IMG/VR virus record: IMGVR_UViG_2541047802_000008
DNA length: 40,539 nucleotides
Origin: a virus
Taxonomy: Duplodnaviria > Heunggongvirae > Uroviricota > Caudoviricetes
Strand: one strand, 5' to 3'
Part shown: positions 1-33,551 of the stretch, one piece after another
Layout: each line of letters starts with the position of its first letter
Position numbering within the stretch: position 1 is the first letter of the stretch
Translations under genes and position numbers: made by a program
Notes under the pieces: generated by a model
Told to the model about the DNA's origin: nothing
The model's input: only the letters and a program-made list of their open reading frames with translations
Database searches by the model: none

Positions 1-1251
1 GTGCTTACCGATACAAAATTAAAAAACCTCAAGCCGCAGGACAAACTGTACAAGGTCTCCGATCGTGACGGGCTGTATGTAGCTGTGCTTACGTCAGGCA
101 CGGTCTCGTTTCGCTATGACTACCGTATCAACGGTCGCCGCGAAACACTGGTAATCGGGCAGTATGGGCGTGACGGTATCAGCCTGGCAGAAGCGCGAGA
201 AGAACTGATTGCTGCAAAGAAGCTGCTTAAAGCAGGCCAGTCACCGGCTGCGGCTAAACGTGACGGTATCAAAAAGATTCGTGGTGCCGAGACGTTTGCG
301 GTACATACCGACAGTTATATGAAACACGTCATCCTGGCTGACAGTACCCGCGCAATGAAGCAGGCGGTGATCGACCGTGACATACTTCCTGTTCTTGGTA
401 ACAAAATGATGGCTGAAATTACCACATCGATGGTTCGTGATTTGTGTGACCGGATTGTCGAACGCGGTGGTCGGGCAACAGCAGTACAGGCCAGGGAGAT
501 CATCAGCAGCGTATACCGTCACGCCAATGACCGTGGTCATGGTTTGTTTAATCCTGCGGCTGACATTAAACCTTCGTCTATCGCCATATTTAAACCACGA
601 GAGCGAACACTGACACCAGAAGAAATTGGCCTGTTCTTCCGCACGCTGGATGCCATTGGTGCTATGGGCACTATGAAAATGGCTTTAAAGCTGGTGCTTA
701 TCACTATGGTTCGTAAAGGCGAATTCACCAATGCAACGTGGGATGAAATAGATTTTAAAAAATGGACATGGACAATTCCTTCAGACCGCATGAAGGGAAG
801 CCGGGCGCACGTTATTTACCTGCCTAAACAGGCACAGGATATATTGGTTGGGTTGCAGATGTGCGCTGGTGGAAGTGAATATCTGGTTCCTGGTCGTTAC
901 AATTTCCGGAAGCCATTATCTAATGCCGCGCTGAACTCTCTGATCGACAGAACGGTGAAAATAATAAATGAAGATGGTGAGCATATTCAGGGCTTCACCG
1001 TACACGATATGCGCCGTACAGCCAGTACGTTGTTGCATGAGGCTGGTTATCCTTCAGACTGGATTGAAAAGGCTCTGGCACATGAGCAGAAAGGTGTGCG
1101 CGCCGTATATAACAAAGCGGAATACGCCAGACAGCGCGCCTACATGTTGCAGCAGTGGGCCGATATGATTGATTCATGGATTGACGGGGAGCATACGGAT
1201 CTGATTCCGTTCTCCCCGTCGAAGTTTGAGAAGTGGATGGCGGGGGAATAA
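1..1251 (+). CDS. int: Tyrosine recombinase / integrase, P4-type (N-terminal arm-binding domain plus catalytic domain)
   Basis: 416-aa ORF; N-terminus LTDTKLKNLKP...YKVSDRDGLY typical of P4-family integrases; C-terminal HDMRRTAST...LAH...Y catalytic signature. Codon at position 1 is GTG, so the 5' end may be truncated or GTG-initiated. Confidence 0.88.
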   Translation: MLTDTKLKNLKPQDKLYKVSDRDGLYVAVLTSGTVSFRYDYRINGRRETLVIGQYGRDGISLAEAREELIAAKKLLKAGQSPAAAKRDGIKKIRGAETFAVHTDSYMKHVILADSTRAMKQAVIDRDILPVLGNKMMAEITTSMVRDLCDRIVERGGRATAVQAREIISSVYRHANDRGHGLFNPAADIKPSSIAIFKPRERTLTPEEIGLFFRTLDAIGAMGTMKMALKLVLITMVRKGEFTNATWDEIDFKKWTWTIPSDRMKGSRAHVIYLPKQAQDILVGLQMCAGGSEYLVPGRYNFRKPLSNAALNSLIDRTVKIINEDGEHIQGFTVHDMRRTASTLLHEAGYPSDWIEKALAHEQKGVRAVYNKAEYARQRAYMLQQWADMIDSWIDGEHTDLIPFSPSKFEKWMAGE

Positions 1252-2795: not shown

Positions 2796-3818
2796 TTACT
2801 CGAATTCTGGACGCATATCGTTAAGCGTCATCATGAATTTTTGGTGATATTCATCACCGAGCTTTTCAGCCATGGTGTTAATTTCATTTTCAGCGCGCTT
2901 GAACATCGTTTTTGCATCTTCAGCAGATGGATCCAGGCTATTAAGTATCGCGATGATATATTCTCGAGCTTCTTCTCGTTCTGAATCTGAAATTGGCGAC
3001 AGGTGTTGACGCTCATCGTCAACTACGGAATATTCACCAGTGATAACAGCTGCGTTATCTTGGCTAAGTCCAGCTTCAGCGCGCTCATCCATAACAACAG
3101 CCTTCTGCATTTCAATAGAAACAGGAAGATATTTGAACAGTCGGCGAATTACTGTTTTTTTAGCCATCTCATCGAAGTGATCAACCCATGGGCCACTGCT
3201 ACCGGCTTTGCTCAGTGCACGAACTTTCTCAACGTCTGCCCGGCTCATAACTTCAAATTGGACTCCGCCATCTTTCAGTCGTGCAACGGCGTAAACGTGC
3301 GTTAATTCTCCGCGGTCACCTGTTTCGCAAGGTAAATGCTCGAGCGTTTCTTCCAGGCCGTATGAGTAGCTGAATTTGTCGTTTGTATGTACGGTACGAG
3401 CCGAGATACTCAGGATCTGCCCAGAGCGGCGGGCAAGGTCAATCATTCCGCGATAGCCGATAATCAGCTGTGCTTCTGTAGATACGGTTTCCCATCTTCC
3501 ATTTACTTTCTGGCGTTTGTCGAACGGTATCAGGTAAGCGTGTCCAAGAGCTCCGCCTGGTTCAAGACCCAATTGGGCACATTGCATAATTGCCCCCAGG
3601 AAGCTGGCTTGGTCGCATGATGCAAGTTTTGGAACCTTTCTGATCTCTGTGGTTGCTATGCGCGCCAGACGGTCTGCTGTCATGTGCTTTGGAAGTGCCA
3701 AAGCCATCTGAGCTTTAATTTTTGGGTCTGCCAGAAGTCCGGCCAGAGTTGTTGGTTTCTCATTATGATGTGCAACTTGGTTACCGGTAGCCGCTGCCTT
3801 AAGTGCATTGATAGACAT
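2796..3818 (-). CDS. recT: RecT-family single-strand annealing recombinase
   Basis: 340-aa translation shares long conserved blocks with Rac RecT (IATTEIRKVP, GLEPG.ALGHAYL.PF, LIIGYRGMIDLARRSGQI, THVYAVARLKDGG.QFEVM, GPWV.H..EMAKKT.IRRLFKYLPVSIE). Confidence 0.92.
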   Translation of the reverse strand: MSINALKAAATGNQVAHHNEKPTTLAGLLADPKIKAQMALALPKHMTADRLARIATTEIRKVPKLASCDQASFLGAIMQCAQLGLEPGGALGHAYLIPFDKRQKVNGRWETVSTEAQLIIGYRGMIDLARRSGQILSISARTVHTNDKFSYSYGLEETLEHLPCETGDRGELTHVYAVARLKDGGVQFEVMSRADVEKVRALSKAGSSGPWVDHFDEMAKKTVIRRLFKYLPVSIEMQKAVVMDERAEAGLSQDNAAVITGEYSVVDDERQHLSPISDSEREEAREYIIAILNSLDPSAEDAKTMFKRAENEINTMAEKLGDEYHQKFMMTLNDMRPEFE

Positions 3819-5196: not shown

Positions 5197-5211
5197 TTAC
5201 CGTTGGGGTAA
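5197..5211. promoter_or_regulatory. Operator-like palindrome TTACC-GTTGG-GGTAA (OL region)
   Basis: Perfect TTACC-N5-GGTAA dyad between the repressor gene terminator and the leftward recombination operon. Confidence 0.6.
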
Positions 5212-5330: not shown

Positions 5331-5915
5331 TTATTGTTTGCTTTTTTCGTTCTGGTTGATGACAAATTCAATGTAACTTTCGATCTTTGCTTTCTCGGTT
5401 TCGGGTAACAATGCGTAGCGTGAGCGGTCATAGTTGATAGTCGCAGGGTCGTGCGGGTGAATCAGTAGTTCATATCCGTGACGCCCGAATGCGGATGCAA
5501 CATTCTCCAGGGTGGAAATGGAAACGCTGACCTCATTGTTTAACAGGCGGCTGATTGTCACCTGGGCGACGCCGGATGCGCGGTGAAGTTTTCCCTGTGT
5601 TGAAAGGTCGCGGCTTTCGCTCATCCAGCGTTCCAGGTTGTGAGCCGCCAGCTGACCAATGTCGCTTGGGCCGACAGGCTGAAAACCTTCCTGAGAAAGC
5701 GAGCGATCGATATCAAGCCAGTTACGGGGTTTATTGGCGGCAGCTTCAATTTTTCGCGCAACCTGGTCGCCGATAACCTTCTTGCCAAGAGCCCAGCGGT
5801 TTACCAGATTTGCCTGAGTTCCAAGTTTTTCTGCCATCCGCGTCTGAACACCATTGAATTCACGGTCGATCAAGTCGTTGAGATTTTGCCTGCGGACGTC
5901 CTGGATACTTTTCAT
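5331..5915 (-). CDS. Prophage repressor candidate: tandem HTH (two XRE/lambda-repressor-like DNA-binding domains), no peptidase S24 autocleavage domain
   Basis: 194 aa; N-terminal RRQNLNDLIDREFNGVQTRMAEKLGTQANLVNRW and a second HTH-like segment SGVAQVTISRLLNNEVSVSISTLENVASAFG; no LexA-like Ser/Lys cleavage module. Divergent from a Cro-like gene, flanked on both sides by operator-like dyads. No SD in the last 12 nt before the ATG (the nearest GAGG is about 15 nt upstream, too far). Confidence 0.7.
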   Translation of the reverse strand: MKSIQDVRRQNLNDLIDREFNGVQTRMAEKLGTQANLVNRWALGKKVIGDQVARKIEAAANKPRNWLDIDRSLSQEGFQPVGPSDIGQLAAHNLERWMSESRDLSTQGKLHRASGVAQVTISRLLNNEVSVSISTLENVASAFGRHGYELLIHPHDPATINYDRSRYALLPETEKAKIESYIEFVINQNEKSKQ

Positions 5916-6666: not shown

Positions 6667-7500
6667 ATGAGCAGACATGCAACAGATTGGGCCTGGGAGA
6701 CAGATCCAGGTAGCTCATCATTAAAGCTCATACTGCTCTCGATGGCTGACAGAGCCGATGAATATAACCTCTGCTACCCCAGCATAGAACGCCTCGTTAA
6801 AGACACTTGCCTGAATAAAAAAACCGTGCAGGCCGGGCTTATATCGCTCATGAAAATGGGGCTTATTTCAGATACCGGAGAGAGAAAGGGAGCGACAAAA
6901 AGAGTGCGGGTTTTCTCTCTTAATATAACCAAAAACGGGAACATTAAAGGCAACCGGGAGGGGGGCAATGAACCCGAAAACGGTAATGTTACCGAAAACG
7001 GGAATATACCCAAAAACGGGATGTTGAATGATCCCAAAAACGGGATGTTGAATGATCCCAAAAACGGGATCCAGAACCAGTCATATAACCAGTCATTTAA
7101 CCAAGAGAGGGAGAGCAGGACAAAAACCGGGGATTCTGTTCCTCATGACCCCGGCGCAAACAACGCCGTGATGAATAACTTTGTTCCTCCTGGTGGGCCA
7201 GGGCAATTAGGTAAATTTGTCATGCATGAACAATGGCAGCCATCAGATGACTTTCTTCGGAAAAGCTCATTGCAGGGAATCTACCTGGACAGTCTGCCAA
7301 CGGCACAGGAACTTGCAGAGTTCAGAATTTACTGGATGGCTGAGGGTAAGGCATACCATCAGGCACAGTGGGAGCAGAAGCTGGCAAGGCGCATCCAGTT
7401 CTGTAGACAGAAATCAGGTGAAGTCAGAAAGAGCCTTGACTGGCATAACACTGACTGGATAGATGAGGTGTGGGATGAAATCAACTCCAGAACTTCTTAA
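6667..7500 (+). CDS. Replication initiator (lambda O-like organiser: N-terminal HTH, internal repeat linker)
   Basis: GGAG SD before ATG 6667; N-terminal HTH-like region; internal repeated peptide (PKNGMLND x2 plus ENGN/KNGN variants) encoded by DNA iterons; immediately precedes a lambda P homologue. Confidence 0.72.
   Translation: MSRHATDWAWETDPGSSSLKLILLSMADRADEYNLCYPSIERLVKDTCLNKKTVQAGLISLMKMGLISDTGERKGATKRVRVFSLNITKNGNIKGNREGGNEPENGNVTENGNIPKNGMLNDPKNGMLNDPKNGIQNQSYNQSFNQERESRTKTGDSVPHDPGANNAVMNNFVPPGGPGQLGKFVMHEQWQPSDDFLRKSSLQGIYLDSLPTAQELAEFRIYWMAEGKAYHQAQWEQKLARRIQFCRQKSGEVRKSLDWHNTDWIDEVWDEINSRTS
6929..7072 (+). repeat. Iteron array (candidate origin of replication) inside the initiator gene
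   Basis: Six direct repeats of CC(A/C/G)(A/G)AAAACGG(G/T)A starting at 6929, 6973, 6991, 7009, 7033 and 7057, including two identical 24-bp units CCCAAAAACGGGATGTTGAATGAT; followed by a CCAGTCAT(A/T)TAACCA duplication. Confidence 0.6.
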
Positions 7501-12769: not shown

Positions 12770-12843
12770 TCCGCTTGAGGGGATAATGTTGTTGATATCC
12801 TCTGATGAGGATAAAACAAAGCCAGCTCATAGGCTGGCTGTTT

Positions 12844-12855
12844 GTGATATGTCAC
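12844..12855. repeat. 12-bp palindrome variant GTGATATGTCAC (copy 2 of 3, one mismatch)
   Basis: Between the terminase large gene and the convergent Gp49-like gene. Confidence 0.5.
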
Positions 12856-12859
12856 GGTG

Positions 12860-13234
12860 TTATTGCTCGCTTAACTTCTGCTTCAGCAAGTAACCTTCAA
12901 GCATCCAGATTTTGTTTACAGCATTCTGTCGGGCAATCTTCCGACCAATTTCTGCATCAAAGTTTTCCGGGCTTGCACAGGCGCTCTCTCCGGTGACGGT
13001 GAAGCCGTTGCGCAGCACCAGGACGCAGAAAGTGAGAAGGTGCAGAGCATCAGGGGTGGCTTCGACATAAGGCTCTGGATTATAAATAAGGTCATCTTCT
13101 TTAGCCTGATGATCCCCCTGCGCAGCAGTAAAAAAATGCTCACTGCAAATGAGACCTTCAATTTTCTCAGGAGTTACACGAGGTGCCGTTTTACCTTTCT
13201 CAACGATTTCTTTTTCGATTTGCTGGTCGTTCAT
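12860..13234 (-). CDS. Gp49-like phage protein (conserved, unknown function)
   Basis: 124 aa; AAGGTGAG SD before ATG 13234; C-terminal FDAEIGRKIARQNAVNKIWMLEGYLLKQ resembles N15 gp49-family proteins (from memory). Confidence 0.5.
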   Translation of the reverse strand: MNDQQIEKEIVEKGKTAPRVTPEKIEGLICSEHFFTAAQGDHQAKEDDLIYNPEPYVEATPDALHLLTFCVLVLRNGFTVTGESACASPENFDAEIGRKIARQNAVNKIWMLEGYLLKQKLSEQ

Positions 13235-13245
13235 AATCTCACCTT

Positions 13246-13269
13246 AAAAAAATGCCCGGCGAACCGGGC
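13246..13269 (-). terminator. Rho-independent terminator downstream of the tRNA (minus strand)
   Basis: Plus-strand AAAAAAA-TGCCCGGCGAACCGGGC; on the minus strand the GCCCGG/CCGGGC hairpin is followed by a U7 run. Confidence 0.5.
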
Positions 13270-13438
13270 GAACTGGAAGCAATGAGTTATGCCTTCCGTG
13301 GCTGTACTGGTTTACAGCATGAAGTCATCGCAATGGCGTCCTGCTGTAAAAAGGGCAAGGGCGGTGATAGTCCTTCAAGGGAAACCATCACCGCCAAGCA
13401 CCTGGAACTTCTGGCATCACGGTCCTTAGGCGTGATTC

Positions 13439-13515
13439 TGGCGTGGCATGCAGGATTCGAACCTGCGACCAACCGCTTAGAAGGCGGTTGCTCTGTCCAA
13501 CTGAGCTAATGCCAC
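13439..13515 (-). tRNA. tRNA-Arg (anticodon UCU, reads AGA), phage-encoded, CCA encoded
   Basis: Reverse complement folds as a cloverleaf: acceptor GTGGCAT/ATGCCAC, D-arm GCTC...GAGC, anticodon stem ACCGC/GCGGT with loop CTTCTAA, T-arm GCAGG-TTCGAAT-CCTGC, discriminator G, CCA. Related to but distinct from host argU as recalled. Confidence 0.9.
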
Positions 13516-13837
13516 AACGCTGAGAGCACTTAGCCTGTTAAGGCGCCACACTTTGTCGCGGCTCCATAAATGCTCTCATCGTTGTACCCTCGTCTCTTCC
13601 GAGGCGTCACACCGAATCGCCGGGATGGTGAATCCCCGTGCGCGGAATAAAACCGCTCGACTTGCACATTCCGGCTACCTGGTTCGTTTGCCACAGCCAG
13701 GGAGGGTGCCCCTTAAACGTATCCAGACCGCTATCGGCGCATGTGCCATACGCCGTACTGCTCAAAATAAAAGCTCACTCCACCTGTTTAATTTAACGAC
13801 AAGCCAGTCAGGTTAGTAACCAGAATGAGCCCTTTGG

Positions 13838-13852
13838 TTACCTGAAAGGTAA
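13838..13852. promoter_or_regulatory. Operator-like dyad TTACC-TGAAA-GGTAA upstream of the virion gene cluster
   Basis: Perfect dyad about 90 nt before ATG 13943; followed by a TTAACGCGTTAA palindrome at 13856..13867. Confidence 0.5.
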
Positions 13853-13942
13853 TAATTAACGCGTTAAATGTCAACCTTCTACGATAAATAAATCATATGT
13901 GGTTAAATTGGTAATAATTTAATTGCGTACGGAGTCATTGAT

Positions 13943-14149
13943 ATGTGCATGGGTAGCTCACCATCAGTGCCTGCAACACCAGAAGTTCAGGCAGCACCAC
14001 AGGAGCAGGATGCCGCCGTTGTTGATGCCCGCGACGAAGAAACACGTCGCCGTCGCGCTGCTGCTGGTCGTAGTTCTACGCTGCTTACCGGTTCTCAGGG
14101 CGACACATCAACCGCTAATACCAGCGGTAAAACGCTGCTTGGTCAGTAA
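13943..14149 (+). CDS. Small hypothetical protein (68 aa) preceding the portal gene
   Basis: Strong RBS context GGAGTCATTGATATG, nearly identical to the portal initiation region GGAGTCATTGAAATG. Confidence 0.45.
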   Translation: MCMGSSPSVPATPEVQAAPQEQDAAVVDARDEETRRRRAAAGRSSTLLTGSQGDTSTANTSGKTLLGQ

Positions 14150-14163
14150 CCGGAGTCATTGAA

Positions 14164-15843
14164 ATGGCGGAAACAACTAAAGAGCGATTGAACAAACAGT
14201 TCGCACAACTTGAAAGCGAGCGTCAGTCGTTCGAGCCGCACTGGCGCGAGTTGAGTGATTACATCAACCCGCGTGGTTCCCGCTTTCTGACTTCTGAAGT
14301 CAACCGTAACGATCGACGCAATACACGCATTATTGATTCGACCGGGACTATGGCGGCGCGCACTCTCGCCAGCGGCATGATGTCAGGCATCACAAGCCCT
14401 GCGCGTCCGTGGTTTCGCCTGGCTACGCCAGATCCTGAAATGATGGATTATGGTCCTGTTAAGTTGTGGCTCGAGGCGGTGCAGAACCGCATGAACGATA
14501 TGTTCAATAAGTCGAATCTCTACCAGTCTCTTCCGCAGTTATACGGAAGCCTCGGCACATACAGCACTGGTGCAATGGCGGTGCTGGAGGATGACGAGGA
14601 CATCATTCGCACAATGCCATTCCCGATAGGCAGTTACTACCTGGCTAACTCACCTCGTGGCAGTGTGGACACCTGTTTTCGCAAGTTCTCTATGACTGTT
14701 CGTCAGCTTGTTCAGGAGTTCGGGCTAAATAACGTCAGCGAATCCGTAAAAAGCATGTGGGAAAGCGGCACCTACGAGAAGTGGATTGAAGTGATGCATT
14801 CGGTTTACCCGAACATTGACCGCGATACATCGAAGCTGGATAGCAAGAACAAGCCATTCAAATCGGTTTATTACGAGGTTGGTGGCGATAACGACAAGTT
14901 GTTGCGTGAGTCCGGATTCGATGAGTTTCCAATTATGGCTCCGCGCTGGGAAGTTAACGGCGAAGATGTTTATGGATCATCATGCCCGGGTATGCTGGCG
15001 CTTGGACCTGTTAAGGCATTGCAGCTTCTCCAGAAGCGCAAGTCGCAGTTGATTGATAAAGCCACCAATCCGCCGATGGTTGCTCCGACTTCCCTCAAGA
15101 ATCAGCGCGCCTCCCTTCTTCCTGGCGACATCACGTATATCGATCAGATTACTGGTCAGGATGGTTTCAGGCCTGCTTATCTGGTTAACCCCAGTACAGC
15201 AGATTTGGTGGCAGACATTCAGGACACTCGTCAAATCATTAACAGCGCCTACTTTGTCGATCTGTTCATGATGTTGCAGAACATCAATACCCGCTCGATG
15301 CCTGTGGAAGCGGTGATCGAAATGAAAGAAGAAAAACTTCTGATGTTGGGGCCGGTTCTGGAGCGCCTGAACGACGAATGTCTTAATCCTCTCATTGACC
15401 GCTCTTTCTCGATGATGGTGCGTAAAAACATGCTGCCGCCACCGCCAGACGTGATGGAAGGTATGCCCCTGAAGGTCGAATACATTTCCGTCATGGCTCA
15501 GGCGCAGAAGTCTATCGGCCTGTCCAGTCTGGCGTCCACGGTTAACTTCATTGGTCAACTTGCGCAAGCGAAACCAGAAGCTCTCGACAAACTCAACGTT
15601 GATCAGGCGATCGATGCATTCGCTGATATGTCCGGAGTGTCTCCAACCGTCATTGTTCCGCAGGAACAGGTTGAGCAGGCTCGCCAGCAACGGGCACAGC
15701 AACAACAGCAGCAACAAATGATGGCGATGGGGATGGCGGCGGCACAGGGTGCCAAGACGCTAAGCGAAGCTAAAACTTCGGATCCGAGTGTTTTGTCAGC
15801 TATGGCGAATGCAGTTAGTGGTCAGGGTGGGCAATCACAATGA
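14164..15843 (+). CDS. Portal (head-to-tail connector) protein, T7 gp8-like
   Basis: 559 aa; N-terminus and the Gln/Ala/Met-rich C-terminal tail (QQQQQQQMMAMGMAAAQGA) parallel T7 gp8 as recalled. Confidence 0.85.
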   Translation: MAETTKERLNKQFAQLESERQSFEPHWRELSDYINPRGSRFLTSEVNRNDRRNTRIIDSTGTMAARTLASGMMSGITSPARPWFRLATPDPEMMDYGPVKLWLEAVQNRMNDMFNKSNLYQSLPQLYGSLGTYSTGAMAVLEDDEDIIRTMPFPIGSYYLANSPRGSVDTCFRKFSMTVRQLVQEFGLNNVSESVKSMWESGTYEKWIEVMHSVYPNIDRDTSKLDSKNKPFKSVYYEVGGDNDKLLRESGFDEFPIMAPRWEVNGEDVYGSSCPGMLALGPVKALQLLQKRKSQLIDKATNPPMVAPTSLKNQRASLLPGDITYIDQITGQDGFRPAYLVNPSTADLVADIQDTRQIINSAYFVDLFMMLQNINTRSMPVEAVIEMKEEKLLMLGPVLERLNDECLNPLIDRSFSMMVRKNMLPPPPDVMEGMPLKVEYISVMAQAQKSIGLSSLASTVNFIGQLAQAKPEALDKLNVDQAIDAFADMSGVSPTVIVPQEQVEQARQQRAQQQQQQQMMAMGMAAAQGAKTLSEAKTSDPSVLSAMANAVSGQGGQSQ

Positions 15844-25678: not shown

Positions 25679-27477
25679 GTTACTTTGGCCTTAATCCAGT
25701 AAACCAGAATCAGCAGCTTGACGAAGCAGCATCAAATCCAGCTGGCTTTAACAGCGATGTTGGTTTTTTCGACAATGCTGTAGGAGCGGCATTGTCTGGT
25801 TTGTACTCCGGGCTGGTGGCAAAGCCAGATCAGTTGCTATGGGCAGGGATGGATAAAATCGTATCCCCGATTGCTCAGTTTGTTAACGAAAACACCTCGA
25901 TCAATGACACTTCAGTTTCATACATTGCTGAGCAGAGAAAACTAGCAGAGCAGCAGGTTAAGCGGCTGACGCCTGATGCCGCGACAACCGGAACCGCCGG
26001 GCAGGTCCTTTATGGGTTGTTCGATATGGGCGGGCAGGCTGTTGTCGGTACAACGCTCGGTGGTCCGGTCGGAGGTGCTGCGGCGGTAACTTCTCTACAG
26101 GGTTTTTCTGAGTTTGAACGGCTTACAGCACAGGGTGTTGATTTCAGGACGGCGCAGGAAGCGGGATTAGTGCAGGGTATTACTGCTGGTGCCGGAACAC
26201 TGATCCCTATGAGCCTCGGGTTACGTGCTGGTGGTGCGCTGGCGGAAGGTGTGGCGGCTCAGCTTGCGCGGACGGGTGAAAGTTCAGTGCGACGCGCCGC
26301 AGCAACAGCAGTACGTGCAACGCCAGATATTGCCTATGCCGCAGGTACAAATATTGCGTTCGGTATGGCACAGCGTGGGCTTACTGCAAAAACGCTTCGT
26401 GATGGTGGCTATAGCGAAATGGCTAACCAGTATGATGTGTTGGATCGACAGGCAATTGCTATTGATGCTGTTCTTGGGGTGGCGTTTGGTGGTGTCGGCA
26501 GATTTATTAACTCTCGCGGCGAGTCTACAAGCGCACCAAATTTTTCACCAGTTGATATCGATGCTGCACTGGCGGCGAATGCCGCTCATCATGCTGAAAT
26601 TGATATTGCTCCCGGCGTGCCGATCAACGTGCTTTCGCGTAATTCGCACATTCAGGCTCTGCGAAAAGCCATGTCTGATGTTAGCCAGGGGAGACCTGTA
26701 GACGTTGCCAGCATTGTTGAGTCTGCATCTTTCAGTGAAATTCCTGGACGCAAGAGTCTGCTGTCTCAGGCAGTTAATGAGGCTCTGTCATCTGTAGATG
26801 ATGGAGTAACGGCGCGCGCTATAGAAAATCGGTTGCTTGAAGAACAGGCCGCGCAGCTTTTGCCGCGTGGCGATAGACAGGTTTACCAGTCTGAAATCGC
26901 TAATAGCCAACGAATTATTGAAAATCTCACTGAACAGCGCGCACAAATTCTTGCAGAAGATCCAGCCGGTAGCGGTAAGGCTTTATCTCGTGCTCGATCA
27001 GATAAACAGGCCAGACTTCGCGATATTGACCAACGAATCCGGCAGGCACAAGAACGCCTGGAATTTTCTCGTAACGCGTTGGCACCGCATGAGCCTGGCG
27101 GTCAGTTTTTTGAAGCTCGAGCAGAACTGGCTCGGAGACAGCAGGCAGAAAGTGAACTTAATGCTCAGGCTGTTTCATTCTATAAAACAGCAGAGGTCAG
27201 GACGCCAGACGAAGTAGCTCCTTTTGAGCCTGATAAAATATTGCAACAGGCAGAACAAAAAATGATGTCAGATCAGGCAGGAGATATTGATTTGCGCATA
27301 GCTGAAGACTCGCTGATTGAATCACCTGACATGATAATCACCGTGCTGGATGATGATGGTAATCCACAATCGCGCAGTGCGCGTGAAGCACTGGATGAAG
27401 CGAACAGGGAAAGTGAGCAGGCAATACAGGATTCCAGCCTGTTTGATGTCGCTGTGGCGTGTTTCTTGAGAGGTTAA
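25675..27477 (+). CDS. Internal virion / DNA-ejection protein (600 aa)
   Basis: ATGA overlap with the upstream gene; Ala/Gly-rich N-terminus and coiled-coil-like C-terminus. Confidence 0.55.
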   Translation: MSYFGLNPVNQNQQLDEAASNPAGFNSDVGFFDNAVGAALSGLYSGLVAKPDQLLWAGMDKIVSPIAQFVNENTSINDTSVSYIAEQRKLAEQQVKRLTPDAATTGTAGQVLYGLFDMGGQAVVGTTLGGPVGGAAAVTSLQGFSEFERLTAQGVDFRTAQEAGLVQGITAGAGTLIPMSLGLRAGGALAEGVAAQLARTGESSVRRAAATAVRATPDIAYAAGTNIAFGMAQRGLTAKTLRDGGYSEMANQYDVLDRQAIAIDAVLGVAFGGVGRFINSRGESTSAPNFSPVDIDAALAANAAHHAEIDIAPGVPINVLSRNSHIQALRKAMSDVSQGRPVDVASIVESASFSEIPGRKSLLSQAVNEALSSVDDGVTARAIENRLLEEQAAQLLPRGDRQVYQSEIANSQRIIENLTEQRAQILAEDPAGSGKALSRARSDKQARLRDIDQRIRQAQERLEFSRNALAPHEPGGQFFEARAELARRQQAESELNAQAVSFYKTAEVRTPDEVAPFEPDKILQQAEQKMMSDQAGDIDLRIAEDSLIESPDMIITVLDDDGNPQSRSAREALDEANRESEQAIQDSSLFDVAVACFLRG

Positions 27478-27482
27478 ATTAA

Positions 27483-29957
27483 ATGAGACAGGAATGTATA
27501 CAAGCGGTTCAGCAGGCGGCGCAGCGCATGTTAACGGCGCGAGAAATACAGAACATTGAAGACCGCATTTATCGAAATATGCGCTCCATTGCTCGTGATG
27601 ACCCTATGTCGTGGCGACAACTTTCCGAATCAGAGCGGCTATATCGAGCAGCACAATTGGCATCTGAAGAATTACAGCGAGAAGCGGCATTAAAGAAACG
27701 TCGTGTGGCTCTAACTATAGCCGCGCGTCAGAGATTGGATAAATTTATCAATAGCTATCAAGGGGCTGATGGGAAACTTGGCGCTCTTAACCGTACTATA
27801 GCTTTTAATGCAGACGGTAAATCTAATTTCCTCTCTGTTGAATCCAGAACAAAAGCCACCCGTGATTATGCATTGAGTCAATTGCAGGAGGCATTCGAAG
27901 CAGTTGATCCTCGCTTTTTTGGTCTGTTTGAAGATGAAGCGGGCGTACGTGACCTGGTATATGAAATGCGGGGGCAAAATACTGGCAATGCTAAAGCAAG
28001 AAACGGTGCTAAGGCGTGGAGAGAAGTTACAGAGCTGCTGCGCCGCCGGTTTAATGATGCTGGTGGGGACATTGGCTATCTCGAAAACTGGGGGATCCCT
28101 CAACATCATTCTATGGAAAAGGTTGGGGCAGTATCAAAGGATAAGTGGGTTAGCGATGTTATAGGTAAGCTGGATCGCAAATATTATATCCGAGCCGATG
28201 GACAACTGATGAACGATGCCGAGTTGTCTTCATTTCTTGGAGAGGCTTATAACACGATCGCTACTGGTGGGCTGAATAAGCTTACTGATACCGGAATGCG
28301 AATTTCCGGCGCACGTGCTAACCGTGGTAATGCATCACGACAGATACATTTCAAAGATGCAGATTCCTATCTGCAATATCAGCAACTTTATGGCGATCGC
28401 TCTCTATGGGAAATCATGGTCGGTCACCTGGAAGGTATCAGTAAAGATATTGCACTGGTGGAAACATATGGCCCAAACCCCGATCATGTTTTCCGCTCTC
28501 TTCTTGATCAGGTGAAGGCAGAAACGGCAACAGCTAACCCGAGTAAAACCGGTAAAGTCGAGCGGCTGGCGAACAACACAGAGAATCTGTACAACTTTAT
28601 TTCCGGAAAGACACAGCCTGTAGCGAATCCGCACATCGCGCGATGGTCTGACAATATCCGCAACTGGCTGGTTGCCAGCAGACTCGGATCCGCGTTGCTG
28701 TCATCGTTCTCTGATCTTGGAACCATGTATCTGTCTGCGAAGGTTACCAACCTTCCAATAAACCAGTTATTCCGCAACCAGCTTGAAGCTATGGACCCAA
28801 CGAACCGTACAGAACTTGCGCGGGCTCGCCGCGCTGGTCTGGCGATGGAATCTCTACTTGGCAGCGTTAACCGCTGGGCGATGGATAATATGGGGCCGTC
28901 AGTGTCTCGTTGGGCGGCAACGGCGGTAATGCGTGCCAGTGGGCTTACAGCATGGTCAGATGCGCACAAGCGCGCCTATGGCGTAACCATGATGGGAAGC
29001 CTGGGAGAAGTAGTGTCACGGACACCAGACCTTCGTAGCCTCGATGACTCTGATTTTCGTATCCTGAAAAGCAAAGGGATTACTGACACAGACTGGAGCG
29101 TATGGAAGCTGGCGAAACAGGAGGACTGGGGGAACGGTAATAATACGATGCTGACACCGGAAAGCATTATGCGTATCCCTGATTCAGCAGTTAAACATCT
29201 TGGTGAGCCTGAACGCGTGAAATTTGAGGCAATGCGTAAACTGCTCGGTGCCGTAACTGAAGAAGTTGATATGGCTGTTATTACACCGGGAGCACGTGAG
29301 CAACTGATAACCGGTTCTGGTATTCAGCGTGGAACATGGAAAGGTGAATTAACGAGAAGTGTTTTCCTGTTTAAATCGTTCCCTATCTCGGTTGTTATGC
29401 GTCACTGGTCACGCGCTATGGGTATGCCGTCTGCTGGTGGGCGTGCGGCATATATTGCGACGTTTATTGCCAGTACGACCATTCTTGGCGCTTTGTCGCA
29501 GCAACTTAACGACCTTGCGTCTGGTCGTAATCCTCGAGAGATGACAGGAGAAGATGCCGCAAAATTCTGGCTTGGTGCTCTACTGAAAGGTGGTGGTCTT
29601 GGCCTTTACGGTGACTTTTTATTGTCAGATCACACTAGGTACGGAAGCGGCGCGCTGGCGTCGATGCTTGGCCCGGTAGCTGGTCTGGTTGATGACGTAG
29701 TGAAGATTGCTCAGGGCATACCGTTAAATGCTGTGGAAGGGAAGAGTGAGCAGACTGGTGGTGATCTGGTGAAGCTGGGGAAAGGTTTGATGCCTGGTGC
29801 GAATCTCTGGTACTTGAAGGCGGCTCTCGATCACATGATCTTTAACCAGATGCAGGAGTATTTTTCACCAGGCTATTTGCGTAAAATGGAGCAACGTTCG
29901 AAGAAAGAGTTTAACCAGACATACTGGTGGCGACCACAGGATGTCACTCCGCAATAA
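27483..29957 (+). CDS. Internal virion / DNA-ejection protein (824 aa)
   Basis: Large ORF completing the podovirus core-protein trio before the accessory island. Confidence 0.55.
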   Translation: MRQECIQAVQQAAQRMLTAREIQNIEDRIYRNMRSIARDDPMSWRQLSESERLYRAAQLASEELQREAALKKRRVALTIAARQRLDKFINSYQGADGKLGALNRTIAFNADGKSNFLSVESRTKATRDYALSQLQEAFEAVDPRFFGLFEDEAGVRDLVYEMRGQNTGNAKARNGAKAWREVTELLRRRFNDAGGDIGYLENWGIPQHHSMEKVGAVSKDKWVSDVIGKLDRKYYIRADGQLMNDAELSSFLGEAYNTIATGGLNKLTDTGMRISGARANRGNASRQIHFKDADSYLQYQQLYGDRSLWEIMVGHLEGISKDIALVETYGPNPDHVFRSLLDQVKAETATANPSKTGKVERLANNTENLYNFISGKTQPVANPHIARWSDNIRNWLVASRLGSALLSSFSDLGTMYLSAKVTNLPINQLFRNQLEAMDPTNRTELARARRAGLAMESLLGSVNRWAMDNMGPSVSRWAATAVMRASGLTAWSDAHKRAYGVTMMGSLGEVVSRTPDLRSLDDSDFRILKSKGITDTDWSVWKLAKQEDWGNGNNTMLTPESIMRIPDSAVKHLGEPERVKFEAMRKLLGAVTEEVDMAVITPGAREQLITGSGIQRGTWKGELTRSVFLFKSFPISVVMRHWSRAMGMPSAGGRAAYIATFIASTTILGALSQQLNDLASGRNPREMTGEDAAKFWLGALLKGGGLGLYGDFLLSDHTRYGSGALASMLGPVAGLVDDVVKIAQGIPLNAVEGKSEQTGGDLVKLGKGLMPGANLWYLKAALDHMIFNQMQEYFSPGYLRKMEQRSKKEFNQTYWWRPQDVTPQ

Positions 29958-29965
29958 AAGGAGAT

Positions 29966-30091
29966 ATGATGGTTCAAATAACTTTTATTGTACTAATATG
30001 TGCAGCGTTTTTATGCTATTCATACATTTTGATAAAAATGGGTTTCAATTGGAATCTCTGTTGCGTGCAGCGGCATGGTTCGGCTTTGTAG
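29966..30091 (+). CDS. Small hydrophobic peptide candidate (41 aa)
   Basis: AAGGAG at 29958..29963 followed by two in-frame ATGs at 29966 and 29969; translation MMVQITFIVLICAAFLCYSYILIKMGFNWNLCCVQRHGSAL. An overlapping alternative frame (29998..30129) also encodes a hydrophobic peptide; which is real is unresolved. Confidence 0.25.
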   Translation: MMVQITFIVLICAAFLCYSYILIKMGFNWNLCCVQRHGSAL

Positions 30092-30176
30092 TATTCGGAA
30101 TTGTATTGTTCGGAAGAATAATAAAATAACTAGTTAATTTGTGGATTGGTGCTGTTTTTCCATGATAGGGGTAATT

Positions 30177-30557
30177 ATGAGAAAAGTATTTTTGATTTTT
30201 GGATTTATGCTTCTCGTTGGATGCCAGTCAGCTGCACAGTTTGAAAGAAATATGCTTACGTGGCGCGGGCAGAGTATAGACGCAATGGTTCAGCAGTGGG
30301 GGTATCCTCAGGGAGAGCTTACATCTCCAGATGGAAACAGAGTGTATGTTTACTCAAGCTCTGGTAGTTATAACGTACCACAAACCACAACGTATAATAC
30401 TACGTCTAATCTAATTGGTAATACTATATATTCAAACACATACGCAACAACTGATGGCGGTTATACACTCCATTTCAGTTGCTCTGTTTACGTTGAGTTT
30501 GGTGCTGATAAGATTATTAAAAATGTTACATGGCGCGGTAATAATTGCGTTGCGTGA
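30177..30557 (+). CDS. Lipoprotein (126 aa) with signal peptide and lipobox LVGC; accessory gene
   Basis: MRKVFLIFGFMLLVGCQS signal/lipobox; Thr/Ser/Tyr-rich mature region; AT-rich surroundings. Confidence 0.6.
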   Translation: MRKVFLIFGFMLLVGCQSAAQFERNMLTWRGQSIDAMVQQWGYPQGELTSPDGNRVYVYSSSGSYNVPQTTTYNTTSNLIGNTIYSNTYATTDGGYTLHFSCSVYVEFGADKIIKNVTWRGNNCVA

Positions 30558-30565
30558 CATGTCAC
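30554..30565. repeat. 12-bp perfect palindrome GTGACATGTCAC (copy 3 of 3)
   Basis: Overlaps the lipoprotein stop codon and directly abuts the terminator hairpin. Confidence 0.7.
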
Positions 30566-30590
30566 AGGCCGCTTTCGCGGCCTTGTTTTT
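30566..30590 (+). terminator. Rho-independent terminator after the lipoprotein gene
   Basis: AGGCCGC-TTT-CGCGGCCT hairpin followed by TGTTTTT. Confidence 0.6.
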
Positions 30591-30750
30591 AACGAATGCC
30601 ACCGCCACCCGGGCGGGAATCCGCAGAACGCCCACCGCAGCGTGAGCCGTCAGCAGCAGTGTCGCTGTCGTGCTGACAACGACCGGCAAAGGCCTGAGTT
30701 GAAGCTACCAGAGACAACAAAACGAACAGTGCAGCAAATGCTTTTTTCAT
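30589..30750 (-). CDS. Small secreted protein candidate (53 aa) with signal peptide
   Basis: MKKAFAALFVLLSLVASTQAFA signal peptide followed by a short Cys-containing Gly/Arg-rich region; weak RBS. Confidence 0.3.
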   Translation of the reverse strand: MKKAFAALFVLLSLVASTQAFAGRCQHDSDTAADGSRCGGRSADSRPGGGGIR

Positions 30751-30821
30751 TGTGAAATTTCCATCTATAAGCCACCTCAATGTGGCGTCAATGAGTGTAG
30801 CACTGACTTTTGTTTCGTCCA

Positions 30822-30844
30822 CAAAAAAGCCCGCAGCGCGGGCT
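30822..30844 (-). terminator. Rho-independent terminator ending the minus-strand accessory operon
   Basis: Plus-strand AAAAAA-GCCCGCAGCGCGGGC; on the minus strand the hairpin is followed by U6, immediately 3' of the 30844 stop. Confidence 0.55.
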
Positions 30845-31392
30845 TACTTTTCTTCAGGTTTGTTGTCTTCAGATTTCTTCTTGATGCTTGGTTTTTGTCT
30901 AAGAACGAAAATACCAGCCACTGCAACAACTGTACCGATCACTGTGCCAGCTAGAACTTCATGGCCTGTTAAACCTAATAATGTTGCACAAGCTACTGTA
31001 AAAATAGTTGCACTCAGGCCAAACCACTGCCCACGTTTATCTCTATTAATAGCCCCGTCAAGTGCCTTTTCCTCCATTTTCTGGCGGTGAGCAAACTCCT
31101 TCTCCGTCAGCTGGAAGATGCGTTCGGGGGCATCAGGTAAAATATCCTGATACCCGCGAAGCAGATAGGGGGGAGGAAGCGGACCCTGAAACGCATGGTG
31201 AGCGACAACTATCTCCTGAATTTCAGGGCGATCAAGAACTCTTGTGAAGGCATCTGGGTGTTGAATGATCTCGTTACTTAGCCCTTCCTCAACTTCCTCG
31301 AACTCAGTTTCTTCGTTATCACTTGGTTGCCCAATAGATTTTTGCATATTTGTCGAAGGACATTCCTTTAGCTTCTGGTTTTCCTCTTGCAT
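30844..31392 (-). CDS. Membrane protein (182 aa) with acidic N-terminal region and two C-terminal TM helices (DUF2335-like)
   Basis: C-terminal hydrophobic segments WFGLSATIFTVACATLLGL and LAGTVIGTVVAVAGIFVL followed by a Lys-rich tail; RGQ motif before the first TM. Start at 31392 overlaps the upstream gene by 74 nt; a later start at 31347 is possible. Confidence 0.5.
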   Translation of the reverse strand: MQEENQKLKECPSTNMQKSIGQPSDNEETEFEEVEEGLSNEIIQHPDAFTRVLDRPEIQEIVVAHHAFQGPLPPPYLLRGYQDILPDAPERIFQLTEKEFAHRQKMEEKALDGAINRDKRGQWFGLSATIFTVACATLLGLTGHEVLAGTVIGTVVAVAGIFVLRQKPSIKKKSEDNKPEEK

Positions 31393-31645
31393 TTGAGTTT
31401 TTCCCTGTCACTATTGCCCATTTTCCGCCAGCAGGCGCTGCAATTTTTTTTCCGTTCTTTACTATATATTCAGCATAAACACGATTTTCTGACCGTCTGA
31501 GATCGTCTCCGACCATATTCATGTCTCTTGATATAACTTTGACGACAGAGTCTCGGTTTAAAGCCTTGGCATAGTTGGAGCCAGGAACGATACCCAAAGG
31601 GGTGCCAGACTCTATAGCCAGCTCCTTGACATATCTTCTGCTCAT
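31319..31645 (-). CDS. Hypothetical protein (108 aa)
   Basis: ATG at 31645 with GAGG 6 nt upstream, 22 nt downstream of an operator-like dyad; basic protein, function unknown. Confidence 0.45.
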   Translation of the reverse strand: MSRRYVKELAIESGTPLGIVPGSNYAKALNRDSVVKVISRDMNMVGDDLRRSENRVYAEYIVKNGKKIAAPAGGKWAIVTGKNSNARGKPEAKGMSFDKYAKIYWATK

Positions 31646-31666
31646 ATGAACCTCAACCAATCGACT

Positions 31667-31681
31667 TTACCAATCGGGTAA
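31667..31681. promoter_or_regulatory. Operator-like dyad TTACC-AATCG-GGTAA
   Basis: Perfect dyad between the Ant-like gene and the 31645 gene. Confidence 0.5.
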
Positions 31682-31766
31682 TTTTAAACATGAGTATAAT
31701 GCTTTTAACTGCAACGAGTGTAAACAATTATTGATAATTGTAGGCACATCCATGTGCCGCCGCTCG

Positions 31767-32423
31767 TCAGAAGAACCCTGCTTTGTCGTTGATATACTCC
31801 GCGTGGGTCTGGATATCACGCAGGCATTTGCTCACACCGACGATGTAGCAGAACATGGTGGTCAGCTCCGCCGCCGCGCCCGATACGTCGTGCCCGTCGT
31901 CCTGTAACTGGTTCAGCAGATTCATCAGCAGTGAGTGCTCCGTCAGGCCGAGAACACCAGACGGCGAGTGAATCAAACTGCGGTAGCCGGGCTTCAGCGG
32001 GGCGCTGTATTCTTTTTTGTCTTCCAGCTTGATCGCCTCCATAATGGCGGGCATGAAGCCTGACAAGACCTTCTCCACTTTTGTTTCTTGTTGTCTTAAA
32101 CGTTTCTCGCATTCAATGAAGTAGCGTCGCACCTGGCGACCTTTTTCGTTACGCTCGACCATCGCCAGCTCTTTGGCTGTATCAAGGGTGAGGTGGTACT
32201 CTTTGCGGTTGTGGCCGCCTCTACCAGATGTTTGCTTTCCCAAATTGGAAAGCAAAATATAGTCTTGATTTTCAATGAATTCGTATTCTGATATGCGATT
32301 TGTAATCCATGCTGCAAACACCTTTTTAACACCTAAAAAAGCGTGCAGATCGCGGGCATTACAAAGTAGGGCTGTTTCGTTAGATATAGTGCCGTTGAAT
32401 ACGGGGATGAGTTGAGCGTTCAT
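31767..32423 (-). CDS. Ant-like antirepressor candidate (218 aa): N-terminal AntA-like domain plus C-terminal domain shared with the 33574..33831 protein
   Basis: N-terminal [33 protein letters not shown] resembles the AntA/AntB antirepressor N-domain pattern (from memory). The C-terminal ~70 aa align with the 85-aa protein at about 45% identity (IH(S/T)P.GV..L.E.S.LM.LL..L..DG..V.G..AELT...Y......DLQTH). Confidence 0.6.
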
Positions 32424-32580
32424 GATGGCGTCTCCACTTAGCGAATTACATCACCACCGCTGAGACCAATCAGATGGTGGTGAACTGAACGGAGTTGGTC
32501 TTACCGGCCTAAGTGGTACCGGCGTCCTTTCGGACCCCCATTCAGCCCACCATAATTCTGGCATGACTGTGCTATACGCA

Positions 32581-32665
32581 TAAAAAAACCACGTCTGGCG
32601 TGGTATGCGCCACTTAGTAATCCGGGAGACCAATCCCGGCACTGGATTTTGCCAGTGCCCGATTA
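32581..32665 (-). ncRNA. Candidate small RNA or attenuating leader upstream of the Ant-like gene
   Basis: Minus-strand unit: candidate promoter near 32660-32700 (TTTACA-N18-TAGTAA on the minus strand, overlapped by an operator dyad), two adjacent hairpins (32640..32657 and 32622..32639) and an intrinsic terminator (CCACG-CCAGA-CGTGG plus U7, plus-strand 32582..32603). No convincing ORF. Confidence 0.3.
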
Positions 32666-32694
32666 CTATGGCACAAGAGGAGTGCAATGTAAAT

Positions 32695-32709
32695 TTACCG
32701 CAAAGGTAA
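32695..32709. promoter_or_regulatory. Operator-like dyad TTACC-GCAAA-GGTAA
   Basis: Perfect dyad overlapping the candidate promoter of the leader/Ant transcription unit. Confidence 0.5.
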
Positions 32710-32787
32710 TGATAAACGCGAAGAAATATTAAAATCAACCGTATTTGGTTGATTGCGTTTAACGCTTGATCACCTGAAAGCAAGATA

Positions 32788-32802
32788 TTACCTTTAAGGT
32801 AA
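32788..32802. promoter_or_regulatory. Operator-like dyad TTACC-TTTAA-GGTAA
   Basis: Perfect dyad 21 nt upstream of ATG 32823. Confidence 0.5.
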
Positions 32803-32822
32803 TGTTATTGTGAGGAAAAGCA

Positions 32823-33551
32823 ATGGAAGTTTTCTGGATAGTTGTTGGTGTGGTTGCGGTGATTATTTACGTTATCAACCAGAACAAGACTAAGATCTCT
32901 GATCGTACGGTCGTTAATCATAACAAAACGATAAAGACCGAAGATGGGGAGATAACGATTAATCGTACACAGGTGATAGAACACACCTCTACTCAGTTTC
33001 AAAAAACTGGAGGTAATGCGCCTAATATTTCCGCACCTCCTGCTTATGATAGTGCGGTAATCCAGACATATTATAAACAGCAGGAGTTAGCAAAAGAGAG
33101 GCAACTGATTCAGCCAAAGCCGTTTACAGCTGAGCTTCCACCTGGAGTGTCAACGCGTCCGGCATATCATGGAAGATTCCCTGGTGATGACATATCGTCT
33201 CAGTCATCTAAAAAAGCACCTCAGGCAGTATCAGAGCCAGCAAGAATACCTTCTGTATCGCCGCCAAAAGAAGAATCAGCTAACAGAGTTTCAAGTGGTA
33301 GCAAGCAGTGCTTGCGATGCAGAATAAACCTACCATATGAAAAATTCAGGAAATCGTCAAAAAATCCAGATGGATTGACTAAGTGGTGTGCAAGGTGTCT
33401 CGATGGCCCAAAGAATACACGCCATATGAAGTGGTGCCCAATTTGTAATGTCCGCAGAAAACGAACAAGCTTTTACCCTAATAATCAAAATGCGGATGGC
33501 TTAATGGCATGGTGCAAAACGTGCTGGGACGAGCACAAAGCGAAACGATAG
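32823..33551 (+). CDS. Membrane-anchored protein (242 aa): N-terminal TM helix, low-complexity linker, two tandem Cys4 zinc-ribbon repeats
   Basis: TM helix FWIVVGVVAVIIYVI; C-terminal repeats C-LRC-x22-WC-ARC and C-PIC-x24-WC-KTC, each with DGL before WC; GAGG SD. Confidence 0.6.
   Translation: MEVFWIVVGVVAVIIYVINQNKTKISDRTVVNHNKTIKTEDGEITINRTQVIEHTSTQFQKTGGNAPNISAPPAYDSAVIQTYYKQQELAKERQLIQPKPFTAELPPGVSTRPAYHGRFPGDDISSQSSKKAPQAVSEPARIPSVSPPKEESANRVSSGSKQCLRCRINLPYEKFRKSSKNPDGLTKWCARCLDGPKNTRHMKWCPICNVRRKRTSFYPNNQNADGLMAWCKTCWDEHKAKR

Follow-up and report, generated by a model that had tools for sequence, protein, structure and literature searches.

A conserved structured RNA upstream of tRNA-Arg(UCU) in a phiV10-like prophage is a candidate antitermination-type leader

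The 40,539-nucleotide (nt) stretch of viral DNA analyzed here (IMG/VR record IMGVR_UViG_2541047802_000008, hereafter the window), which we identify as the integrated prophage of a phiV10/epsilon15-like podophage (genus Uetakevirus), encodes a tRNA-Arg(UCU) on its minus strand. We found that this tRNA is one module of a leftward unit composed of a leader of ~0.6 kb, extending from a promoter to the second of two terminators (T2), and a cargo gene. The unit has the order promoter/operator, a conserved structured RNA (the core), a long hairpin (P6), the tRNA, a short hairpin (H1), a first terminator (T1), two further hairpins, T2, a ribosome-binding site (RBS) and a variable cargo gene. We assign the core to a widespread family of RNA that is without annotation and suggest from its position, tentatively and with a probability of roughly 0.45, that it is a cis-acting antitermination-type leader RNA, resembling the put sites of phage HK022 in function but unrelated to them. 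The leader would be best filed as a new RNA family of the putative cis-regulatory leader/antiterminator kind. The original prediction, an earlier reading of the letters of the window, had placed a tRNA island at 13246-13860; this extent covers most of the unit, which, however, begins at the -35 box (13875) and continues through the cargo open reading frame (ORF) to 12860.

The core (13585-13755, minus strand, ~170 nt) was defined from an alignment of 25 diverse representatives, from which we built a covariance model, R1. Its fold comprises a hairpin P1, a helix P2 around a variable P3, a P4 with outer and inner helices, a pseudoknot and a hairpin P5 (CCUCG-GAAGAGA-CGAGG). The loop of P4 is the 7-nt UUCACCA, the CACC of which pairs with a downstream GGUG as the pseudoknot, and the invariant unpaired stretches of the core include GGUAGCCGGAAUGUGCAAG. 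Standard pairs filled 96.4% of the alignment cells versus 31-47% when the partners were slid by 1-3 columns, and 11 of the 29 core pairs change on both sides (61 cells), with the observed values reached by none of 500 shuffles. The pseudoknot covaries as well (CACC/GGUG to AACC/GGUU), in one lambdoid clade only, which may represent a single evolutionary event. G-U pairs are frequent only when the minus strand is read, and the RNA is therefore co-oriented with the tRNA. R1 scored the window copy (13755-13585) at 138 bits (E = 1e-41) and found a single copy in each of 30 other diverse loci, with scores of 109-156 bits. The sole other R1 match in the window, at 3575-3706 on the plus strand (13 bits, E = 0.005), is inside the RecT gene and was taken as a chance match rather than as a second core. 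Two additional sets of pairings were also rejected. The first would join the invariant loop of helix P1, GGCACAU, to an invariant AAUGUGC, one side of which changes without compensation in the loci L132 (AAUUUGC) and L134 (AAUAUGC); the second would join core loops to the downstream leader, where only matches of 4-5 nt were found by eye in printed alignments.

Between the core and the tRNA is P6 (13513-13584, minus strand), a long hairpin also identified by covariation. Its base is conserved, with 19 predicted pairs, 10 of which have compensatory changes among 20 diverse homologues, and its tip is hypervariable in length and content, the hairpin measuring 70-150 nt across the family. The final three pairs of P6 use the bases G1-U2-G3 of the tRNA. 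The 3' strand of P6 begins UGCUCU, which is boxA-like (GCUCUUUA-like), and we considered it as a boxA site; however, this strand is paired and covarying in most members, and L041 loses the resemblance, which we treat as unproven. In four loci (L132, L102, L011, and L096) the P6 tip or the tRNA slot was observed to hold T-arm-like hairpins (GGGGUUCGAUUCCCC) or a near-complete, interrupted tRNA, none of which was called by ARAGORN. The ~320 nt preceding the tRNA had been described as non-coding. They indeed contain no credible gene, the ORFs present there overlapping RNA with covarying helices, but they do contain the conserved pseudoknotted RNA.

The 241 nt directly upstream of the tRNA (13516-13756) have ~81% identity to an unannotated stretch beside cI in unrelated lambdoid phages, the carriers being cdtI, mEp460, 2H10, Ayreon, PhiR63_1, and Stx2c-converting phages. 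Approximately 100 nt of the same segment are found at 75% identity in the Stenotrophomonas phage BUCT709, and Uetakeviruses of Klebsiella, Salmonella, and Enterobacter also carry the core. By blastn the element was present in 1840 of 5426 complete Escherichia coli genomes, with 1920 of its sites on chromosomes and 554 on plasmids, and a 16-nt invariant motif occurs in more than 120 IMG/VR viral contigs. None of the records listed has an RNA annotation for the element, a stray "hypothetical protein" overlapping it at most. A permissive search (E <= 10) of Rfam 15 with window positions 12770-14165 and the PhiR63_1 homologue returned only the tRNA and noise. Nor did we find a prior description in the literature on put and HK639, the P1 ban operon, or tRNA-like leaders, or in a 2026 preprint on non-coding RNA (ncRNA) mining, a survey that did not cover the P1 genome paper.

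The lambdoid order is cI, its terminator, an operator-flanked early-left promoter (pL) and the core, and the core-bearing lambdoid phages have no N gene annotated at the core locus. An S24/LexA-type repressor gene is directly upstream on the same strand at 63 of 145 loci, and 78 of the 101 non-P1 loci have a T1-like motif no more than 1.4 kb past the core on its downstream side. In PhiR63_1, hairpins similar to T1 and T2 precede yfdP, the first gene, and in Ayreon terminators are annotated within the early-left operon. Some loci (L087 and L044) have a reverse-inserted gene with a bidirectional terminator between the core and the remainder of the operon.

The lambdoid-type loci have the same leader of H1, T1, hairpins, T2, and RBS, with the tRNA slot taken by a candidate tRNA-like domain of 80-290 nt. 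This domain has an acceptor-like closing stem (UGUGGUG / CACCACA), a tail reading ACCA or ACCC, and hairpins resembling a D-arm (GCGC-AGGCUGAU-GCGC) and a T-arm (GCCGG-AGAUCAGCA-CCGGY), the latter with compensatory variation in its stem; of 16 variants, 13 had the closing stem in their minimum-energy fold. In phage P1 (L152, NC_005856) the core is contained within an unannotated 286-nt gap (71009-71294) between trnI (tRNA-Ile2) and ban, as it is in P7. The P1 gap is within the C1-controlled ban operon, which also has a "dicF-like region," three tRNAs, and two reverse-oriented genes, and the P1 genome is otherwise exhaustively annotated. Epsilon15 (L008) has only a deletion remnant at 2447-2534, in which a shared UUCCCUUGAUGCU joins P1 and the first part of P3 directly to the 3' half of T1. 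Missing from it (the equivalent of window positions 13352-13720) are the tRNA, P6, H1, the greater part of the core, and one half of T1. One copy of UUCCCUUGAUGCU is in the P3 region and another in the T1 loop, and it is apparently between these that the deletion occurred. An "RNaseIII" site is annotated in epsilon15 just upstream of the core remnant.

In the window, the unit is preceded by a leftward sigma-70-type promoter (13847-13875, minus strand) with a -35 box TTGACA at 13875-13870, a 17-nt spacer and a -10 box TACCTT at 13852-13847, from which transcription would start near 13840. Because the -10 box matches only three of six consensus positions, this promoter was missed by a consensus scan. 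Both hexamers and their spacing are kept in phiV10, a Klebsiella relative, and epsilon15, and identical promoter/operator sequence is found before the core in several IMG/VR and Citrobacter loci. A palindromic operator, TTACCTGAAAGGTAA (TTACC-N5-GGTAA, 13838-13852), covers the -10 box. The palindrome occurs 14 times in the window versus 0.6 expected (starts at 5197, 5259, 5971, 6019, 6356, 8295, 8357, 10669, 10687, 13838, 31667, 32695, 32788, and 33908), with clusters in the antirepressor/C4 region and beside a helix-turn-helix gene (5331-5915) that we take to be the repressor gene. It is probably the operator of that repressor and marks several candidate promoters across the prophage; at the homologous place the epsilon15 record has annotated "repressor" and IHF binding sites. 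Since the palindrome overlaps the -10 box, the unit is probably under repressor control, silent in the lysogen and on early after induction or infection. The emphasis of the original prediction on late genes is thus not borne out, as the operator over the -10 box points to an early switch-on after induction and not to a specifically late one. From the putative start to helix P1, alignment of relatives delimits a 5' leader of ~85 nt (13756-13840, minus strand). Its length varies, and in lambdoid loci the core begins <10 nt (in some) to ~50 nt (in PhiR63_1) past the predicted start.

The sequence 3' of the tRNA is also conserved. Directly after its CCA is the hairpin H1 (13416-13436, minus strand; AUCACG-CCUAAGGAC-CGUGAU), recognized by comparison of homologues and nearly invariant in 16 diverse ones, including lambdoid-type loci that have no tRNA. 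Then follows T1 (13348-13395, minus strand), with a GGCGGUGAU / AUCACCGCC stem at 13395-13360 and a U run at 13352-13348. The arms of T1 covary among homologues (GGUGAUGG/CUAUCACC, GGUGGCAG/CUGACCACC, and GGUACCAG/CUGGUACC), and in phiV10 and most homologues CUUUUU is found directly after the stem, as in an intrinsic terminator. Relative to phiV10, however, the window has a 6-nt insertion (CUUGCC on the RNA strand, 13353-13359) between the stem and the U run, and because it displaces the U run from the stem, T1 may be weakened in this prophage. The segment between the terminators (13270-13347, minus strand), which was delimited by conservation and by a centroid fold, has two hairpins (ACAGCA...UGCUGU and GGAAGGCA...UGCUUCC). 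It is conserved from E. coli to Klebsiella and in the lambdoid-type loci, and is kept in epsilon15. T2 (13246-13269, minus strand), found by a terminator scan, is GCCCGG-UUCG-CCGGGC followed by AUUUUUUU; its stem (13269-13254) with a run of seven U has the form of an intrinsic terminator, and the stem covaries (GCCCAC/GUGGGC, GCCCGC/GCGGGC). Much of what had been claimed for this part of the window stood up to analysis. The 9-bp hairpin noted earlier, GGCGGTGAT...ATCACCGCC at 13360-13395, is the stem of T1, the predicted intrinsic terminator corresponds to T2, and folding of the 195 nt beyond the tRNA surpasses that of all 200 shuffles (z = -3.3). The suggestion that the 170-nt segment could be a second, degenerate tRNA fails, with no ARAGORN match and no permissive Rfam match; we read it instead as a conserved leader, H1-T1-two hairpins-T2, common to lambdoid phages.

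Similarity among relatives ends exactly at T2, and the gene that follows varies. In the window it is an RBS (AAGGUGA) and a gene for a 124-residue protein (12860-13245, minus strand) of the N4 gp49 / Sf6 gp66 family (Pfam PF13876, E = 1.8e-34), and the distance from T2 to the RBS is too short for a separate promoter. The same slot in Klebsiella phage ST512-KPC3phi13.3 (L003, 2468-2989) encodes a Tad2-like (Thoeris anti-defence 2) protein and in other relatives several different uncharacterized proteins, which points to the position after the leader as one where accessory or anti-defence genes accumulate. As its cargo is exchangeable and in one case Tad2-like, the module could be used as a marker for early accessory or anti-defence genes. 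Beyond the cargo gene, between it and the convergent terminase gene, a scan found a bidirectional terminator (12820-12839) that is annotated as a terminator in phiV10.

We suspect that the core acts in antitermination because it heads repressor-controlled early operons, because intrinsic terminators separate it from the genes in the lambdoid and phiV10-like loci, because the cargo gene has no space for a promoter of its own, and because the host phages are without N. The core occupies the exact place of N and nutL in lambda. In the mechanism that we propose, removal of the repressor would permit leftward transcription of the unit from the operator-controlled promoter, and the nascent core would act in cis on the transcribing RNA polymerase, or on the folding of the leader. 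The polymerase would then pass T1, T2, and later terminators, such that the tRNA and the downstream genes are made, and RNase P and the 3' processing enzymes would excise the tRNA (in lambdoids, the tRNA-like structure), separating the core from the downstream message. Processing by RNase P is suggested because the core constantly adjoins a tRNA or a tRNA-like domain.

There are clear parallels between the core and the put sites of HK022 (putL and putR), which are also just past a repressor-controlled early promoter, in lambdoid phages without N and with terminators downstream, and which are similarly flexible in position relative to the transcription start. However, put is ~70 nt with two stem-loops, whereas the core spans ~170 nt and has a pseudoknot and five helices, with P6 in addition; put is present in two copies per phage and the core in one; and in the HK022 stretch that was compared no homology between the two is detectable (at most 7 bits). 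The nut sites and the boxA leaders of rrn operons are likewise untranslated leaders that need to escape termination, and an exact rrn boxA (UGCUCUUUAACAA) is present after the core in L087, although few family members have one; in contrast to nut, there is no boxB/N pair here and no N gene annotated. For the lambdoid group, the absence of N was noted and a put-like mechanism merely suggested in 2025 (PMC12315714). If the core is an antiterminator, the question of what serves as early antiterminator in N-less lambdoid phages, raised again in that year, would be open to a simple reporter test, and the unexplained gap in the P1 ban operon would gain a function. More speculatively still, and with odds that we would put well short of even, the core and P6 may be a new class of RNA-only antiterminator, or another RNA that captures RNA polymerase or a host factor, structurally unrelated to put, which takes the large group of N-less lambdoids, the P1 ban operon, and phiV10-like phages past their early terminators, has a slot for a tRNA or tRNA-like domain cut by RNase P, and drives exchangeable accessory or anti-defence cargo.

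Several considerations weigh against antitermination. The step itself is deduced from position alone. When R1 was run on HK022 positions 27000-33000, a region presumed rather than annotated to contain the pL and pR leaders, the best match was 7.4 bits (E = 0.33). There is one core copy per phage and none in the rightward operon, and the number of generic intrinsic terminators downstream of the core is not enriched (50 sense versus 68 antisense at 121 loci), only the T1 motif itself being associated with the core. A polymerase that resists termination would not need the sequence of T1 to be conserved, which could instead reflect a specific RNA-RNA switch or a shared ancestry of the module. In P1 the core is in the middle of the operon, right before ban, with no terminator between them. 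Finally, the module is dispensable, because epsilon15 is viable despite its deletion.

It is also conceivable, albeit unlikely, that the core and P6 form a stable ncRNA acting in trans on a host or phage target, for example as a defence decoy or a leader regulator, which RNase P would free by its cut at the 5' boundary of the neighboring tRNA or tRNA-like domain, much as C4 is freed from an operon leader. The C4 RNA of P1 and P7 is released by RNase P owing to its tRNA-like fold. Like the RNA described here, it is a structured RNA in the leader of a repressor-controlled phage operon, and a true tRNA or tRNA-like domain abuts the core as well: tRNA-Arg on the 3' side in Uetakeviruses, tRNA-Ile2 on the 5' side in P1-type loci, and the tRNA-like domain on the 3' side in lambdoids. 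Long invariant single-stranded stretches suggest a conserved binding partner, a Tad2-like anti-defence gene is among the cargo, and the same window makes use of a C4/isrK module. However, the sequence and fold of C4 are unrelated to those of the core, Rfam C4 matches the window only at 32473-32557, and no antisense target was found for the core. It has no conserved complementarity to other conserved sequence, the pairing of the P1 loop with AAUGUGC failing in two variants as described above. Furthermore, the family is always upstream of co-oriented genes in repressor-controlled operons and never isolated with a terminator of its own, the terminators that directly follow the core in some loci belonging to reverse-inserted genes. 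A trans-acting RNA and the antitermination reading are mutually compatible. The large conserved structured ncRNAs of prophages GOLLD and ROOL, which are associated with tRNA genes, are similar to the core in being physically beside a tRNA gene, but the RNA described here is much smaller, has no Rfam match, is found in phages of Enterobacterales and Stenotrophomonas, and always heads a co-oriented operon.

Aptamers typically have complex folds of this kind, with a pseudoknot and invariant unpaired nucleotides, and the core might act as a sensor or riboswitch, or be bound by a protein or tRNA, and attenuate transcription conditionally at T1 (and T2) by alternative long-range pairing. The sequence of T1 is conserved and co-occurs with the core, whose invariant AGCGGUC shares GCGGU with the 5' arm of T1 and could compete for the 3' arm; moreover, the base of P6 and the first three nt of the tRNA acceptor stem take part in mutually exclusive pairings. 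We nevertheless consider such an attenuator quite improbable. The distance from core to T1 is ~250-900 nt and is filled with unrelated inserts (the tRNA, the tRNA-like domain, or a small ORF), unlike known expression platforms of riboswitches, the candidate competing pairing is just 5 nt, P1-type copies have no T1, and there is no Rfam riboswitch match.

The tRNA itself (13439-13515, minus strand, CCA encoded) is canonical. ARAGORN called exactly one tRNA in the window, a tRNA-Arg with anticodon TCT, and with the Rfam tRNA model (RF00005) it reached 73.3 bits (E = 2.5e-14), the gathering score being 29, so the complete UCU tRNA that had been claimed is upheld, on the strand opposite the structural genes, its cloverleaf scoring with standard tools. 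A20 and C35 are arginine identity elements of tRNA, and A20, C35, and U36 are all present in the sequence. Compared to argU of E. coli K-12, the anticodon loop and T-arm are identical, the D-arm is one base apart, and the differences in the acceptor and anticodon stems are compensatory. We conclude that it is a genuine and probably functional phage tRNA. The tRNA alone is known biology, already annotated as tRNA-Arg in several Uetakevirus records, namely those of O157 typing phages 9 and 10, phiv142-3, SPN9TCW, SPC32H, and Klebsiella phage ST512-KPC3phi13.3.

A role for this tRNA in codon supply is plausible from codon usage. In 50 crudely called ORFs of the window versus 42 annotated genes at K-12 positions 100-150 kb, AGA was counted at 8.4 versus 1.2 per 1000 codons, AGG at 5.0 versus 0.7, and ATA at 10.7 versus 2.4. 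The excess of AGA over K-12 (odds ratio 6.9, p = 1e-19) makes codon supply a reasonable proposal, in partial agreement with the earlier suggestion of a rare tRNA supplied for late gene expression. However, the head genes adjoining the tRNA (the terminase, portal, protease, and coat region) are nearly free of AGA. The AGA-rich genes are those of the tailspike (16 AGA, the maximum in the window), the gene at 6667-7500, and several small genes of the early and lysis regions.

These data raise the question of whether the locus is an ordinary phage tRNA gene flanked by a promoter, an unimportant precursor leader, and terminators. The tRNA-Arg genes of phiV10-like phages and argN/argO of the Stx phage 933W are comparable, being canonical UCU tRNAs of temperate enterobacterial phages with AGA-rich genes, and T1, found directly behind the tRNA in most relatives, would serve to terminate its transcript. 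We regard this explanation as having little chance of being correct. Although the tRNA itself is ordinary and AGA strongly over-used, the conserved structured leader around it is undescribed, and its flanks are conserved with compensatory changes where the tRNA is absent, as in lambdoids, P1, P7, and the Stenotrophomonas phage. The lambdoid relatives carry a tRNA-like domain in place of the tRNA and share the leader of H1, T1, and T2, and the cargo gene has no promoter of its own.

It is highly improbable that the flanks instead encode small hypothetical proteins (phiV10p04, mEp460 gp37, coding sequences of PhiR63_1 and BUCT709, or a 47-residue PGAP coding sequence of P1-like plasmids), for although plus-strand ORFs of 52-87 residues exist and are annotated in some relatives, their frame, length, and position differ among relatives, most records annotate none, substitutions in the helices are compensatory, G-U pairing points to the other strand, and indel lengths do not keep to multiples of three. 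The tRNA has almost no likelihood of belonging to an attachment site or of being a fragment captured from host argU, a reading that was effectively refuted: argU is a known integration site in K-12 (DLP12 begins inside it) and the phage tRNA is similar to it, but the integrase gene, at the start of the window (1-1251), is 12 kb away, the tRNA is full-length with stems that have diverged from argU by compensatory changes, and attP of phiV10, epsilon15, and ZX5 adjoins int and targets guaA (PMC9782041).

The assignment of the window to the phiV10-like phages agrees with its ~97% identity to phiV10 around the tRNA locus, and positions 13500-13780 are 100% identical to a prophage in the E. coli O1:K1:H7 strain APEC E16002. 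The tailspike gene (34027-37146) encodes a K1-capsule endosialidase with an intramolecular chaperone domain, which fits the O1:K1:H7 host of the identical prophage. At 32473-32658, on the minus strand, the window has an Rfam isrK match (67.7 bits) beside one to the C4 antisense RNA (61.2 bits), immediately upstream of an AntA/AntB-type antirepressor gene (31767-32423). We take these together to be a P1/P7-style, RNA-controlled antirepressor module within a phiV10-like phage. Upstream of the promoter of the tRNA unit, within 13876-13942, a stretch of ~47 nt (TTAAATTATTACCAATTTAACCACATATGATTTATTT on the minus strand) preceding a small gene at 13943 has 100% identity in phiV10, the Klebsiella relative, and epsilon15, with diverged flanks, and this invariant stretch may be a control site for the structural-gene operon.

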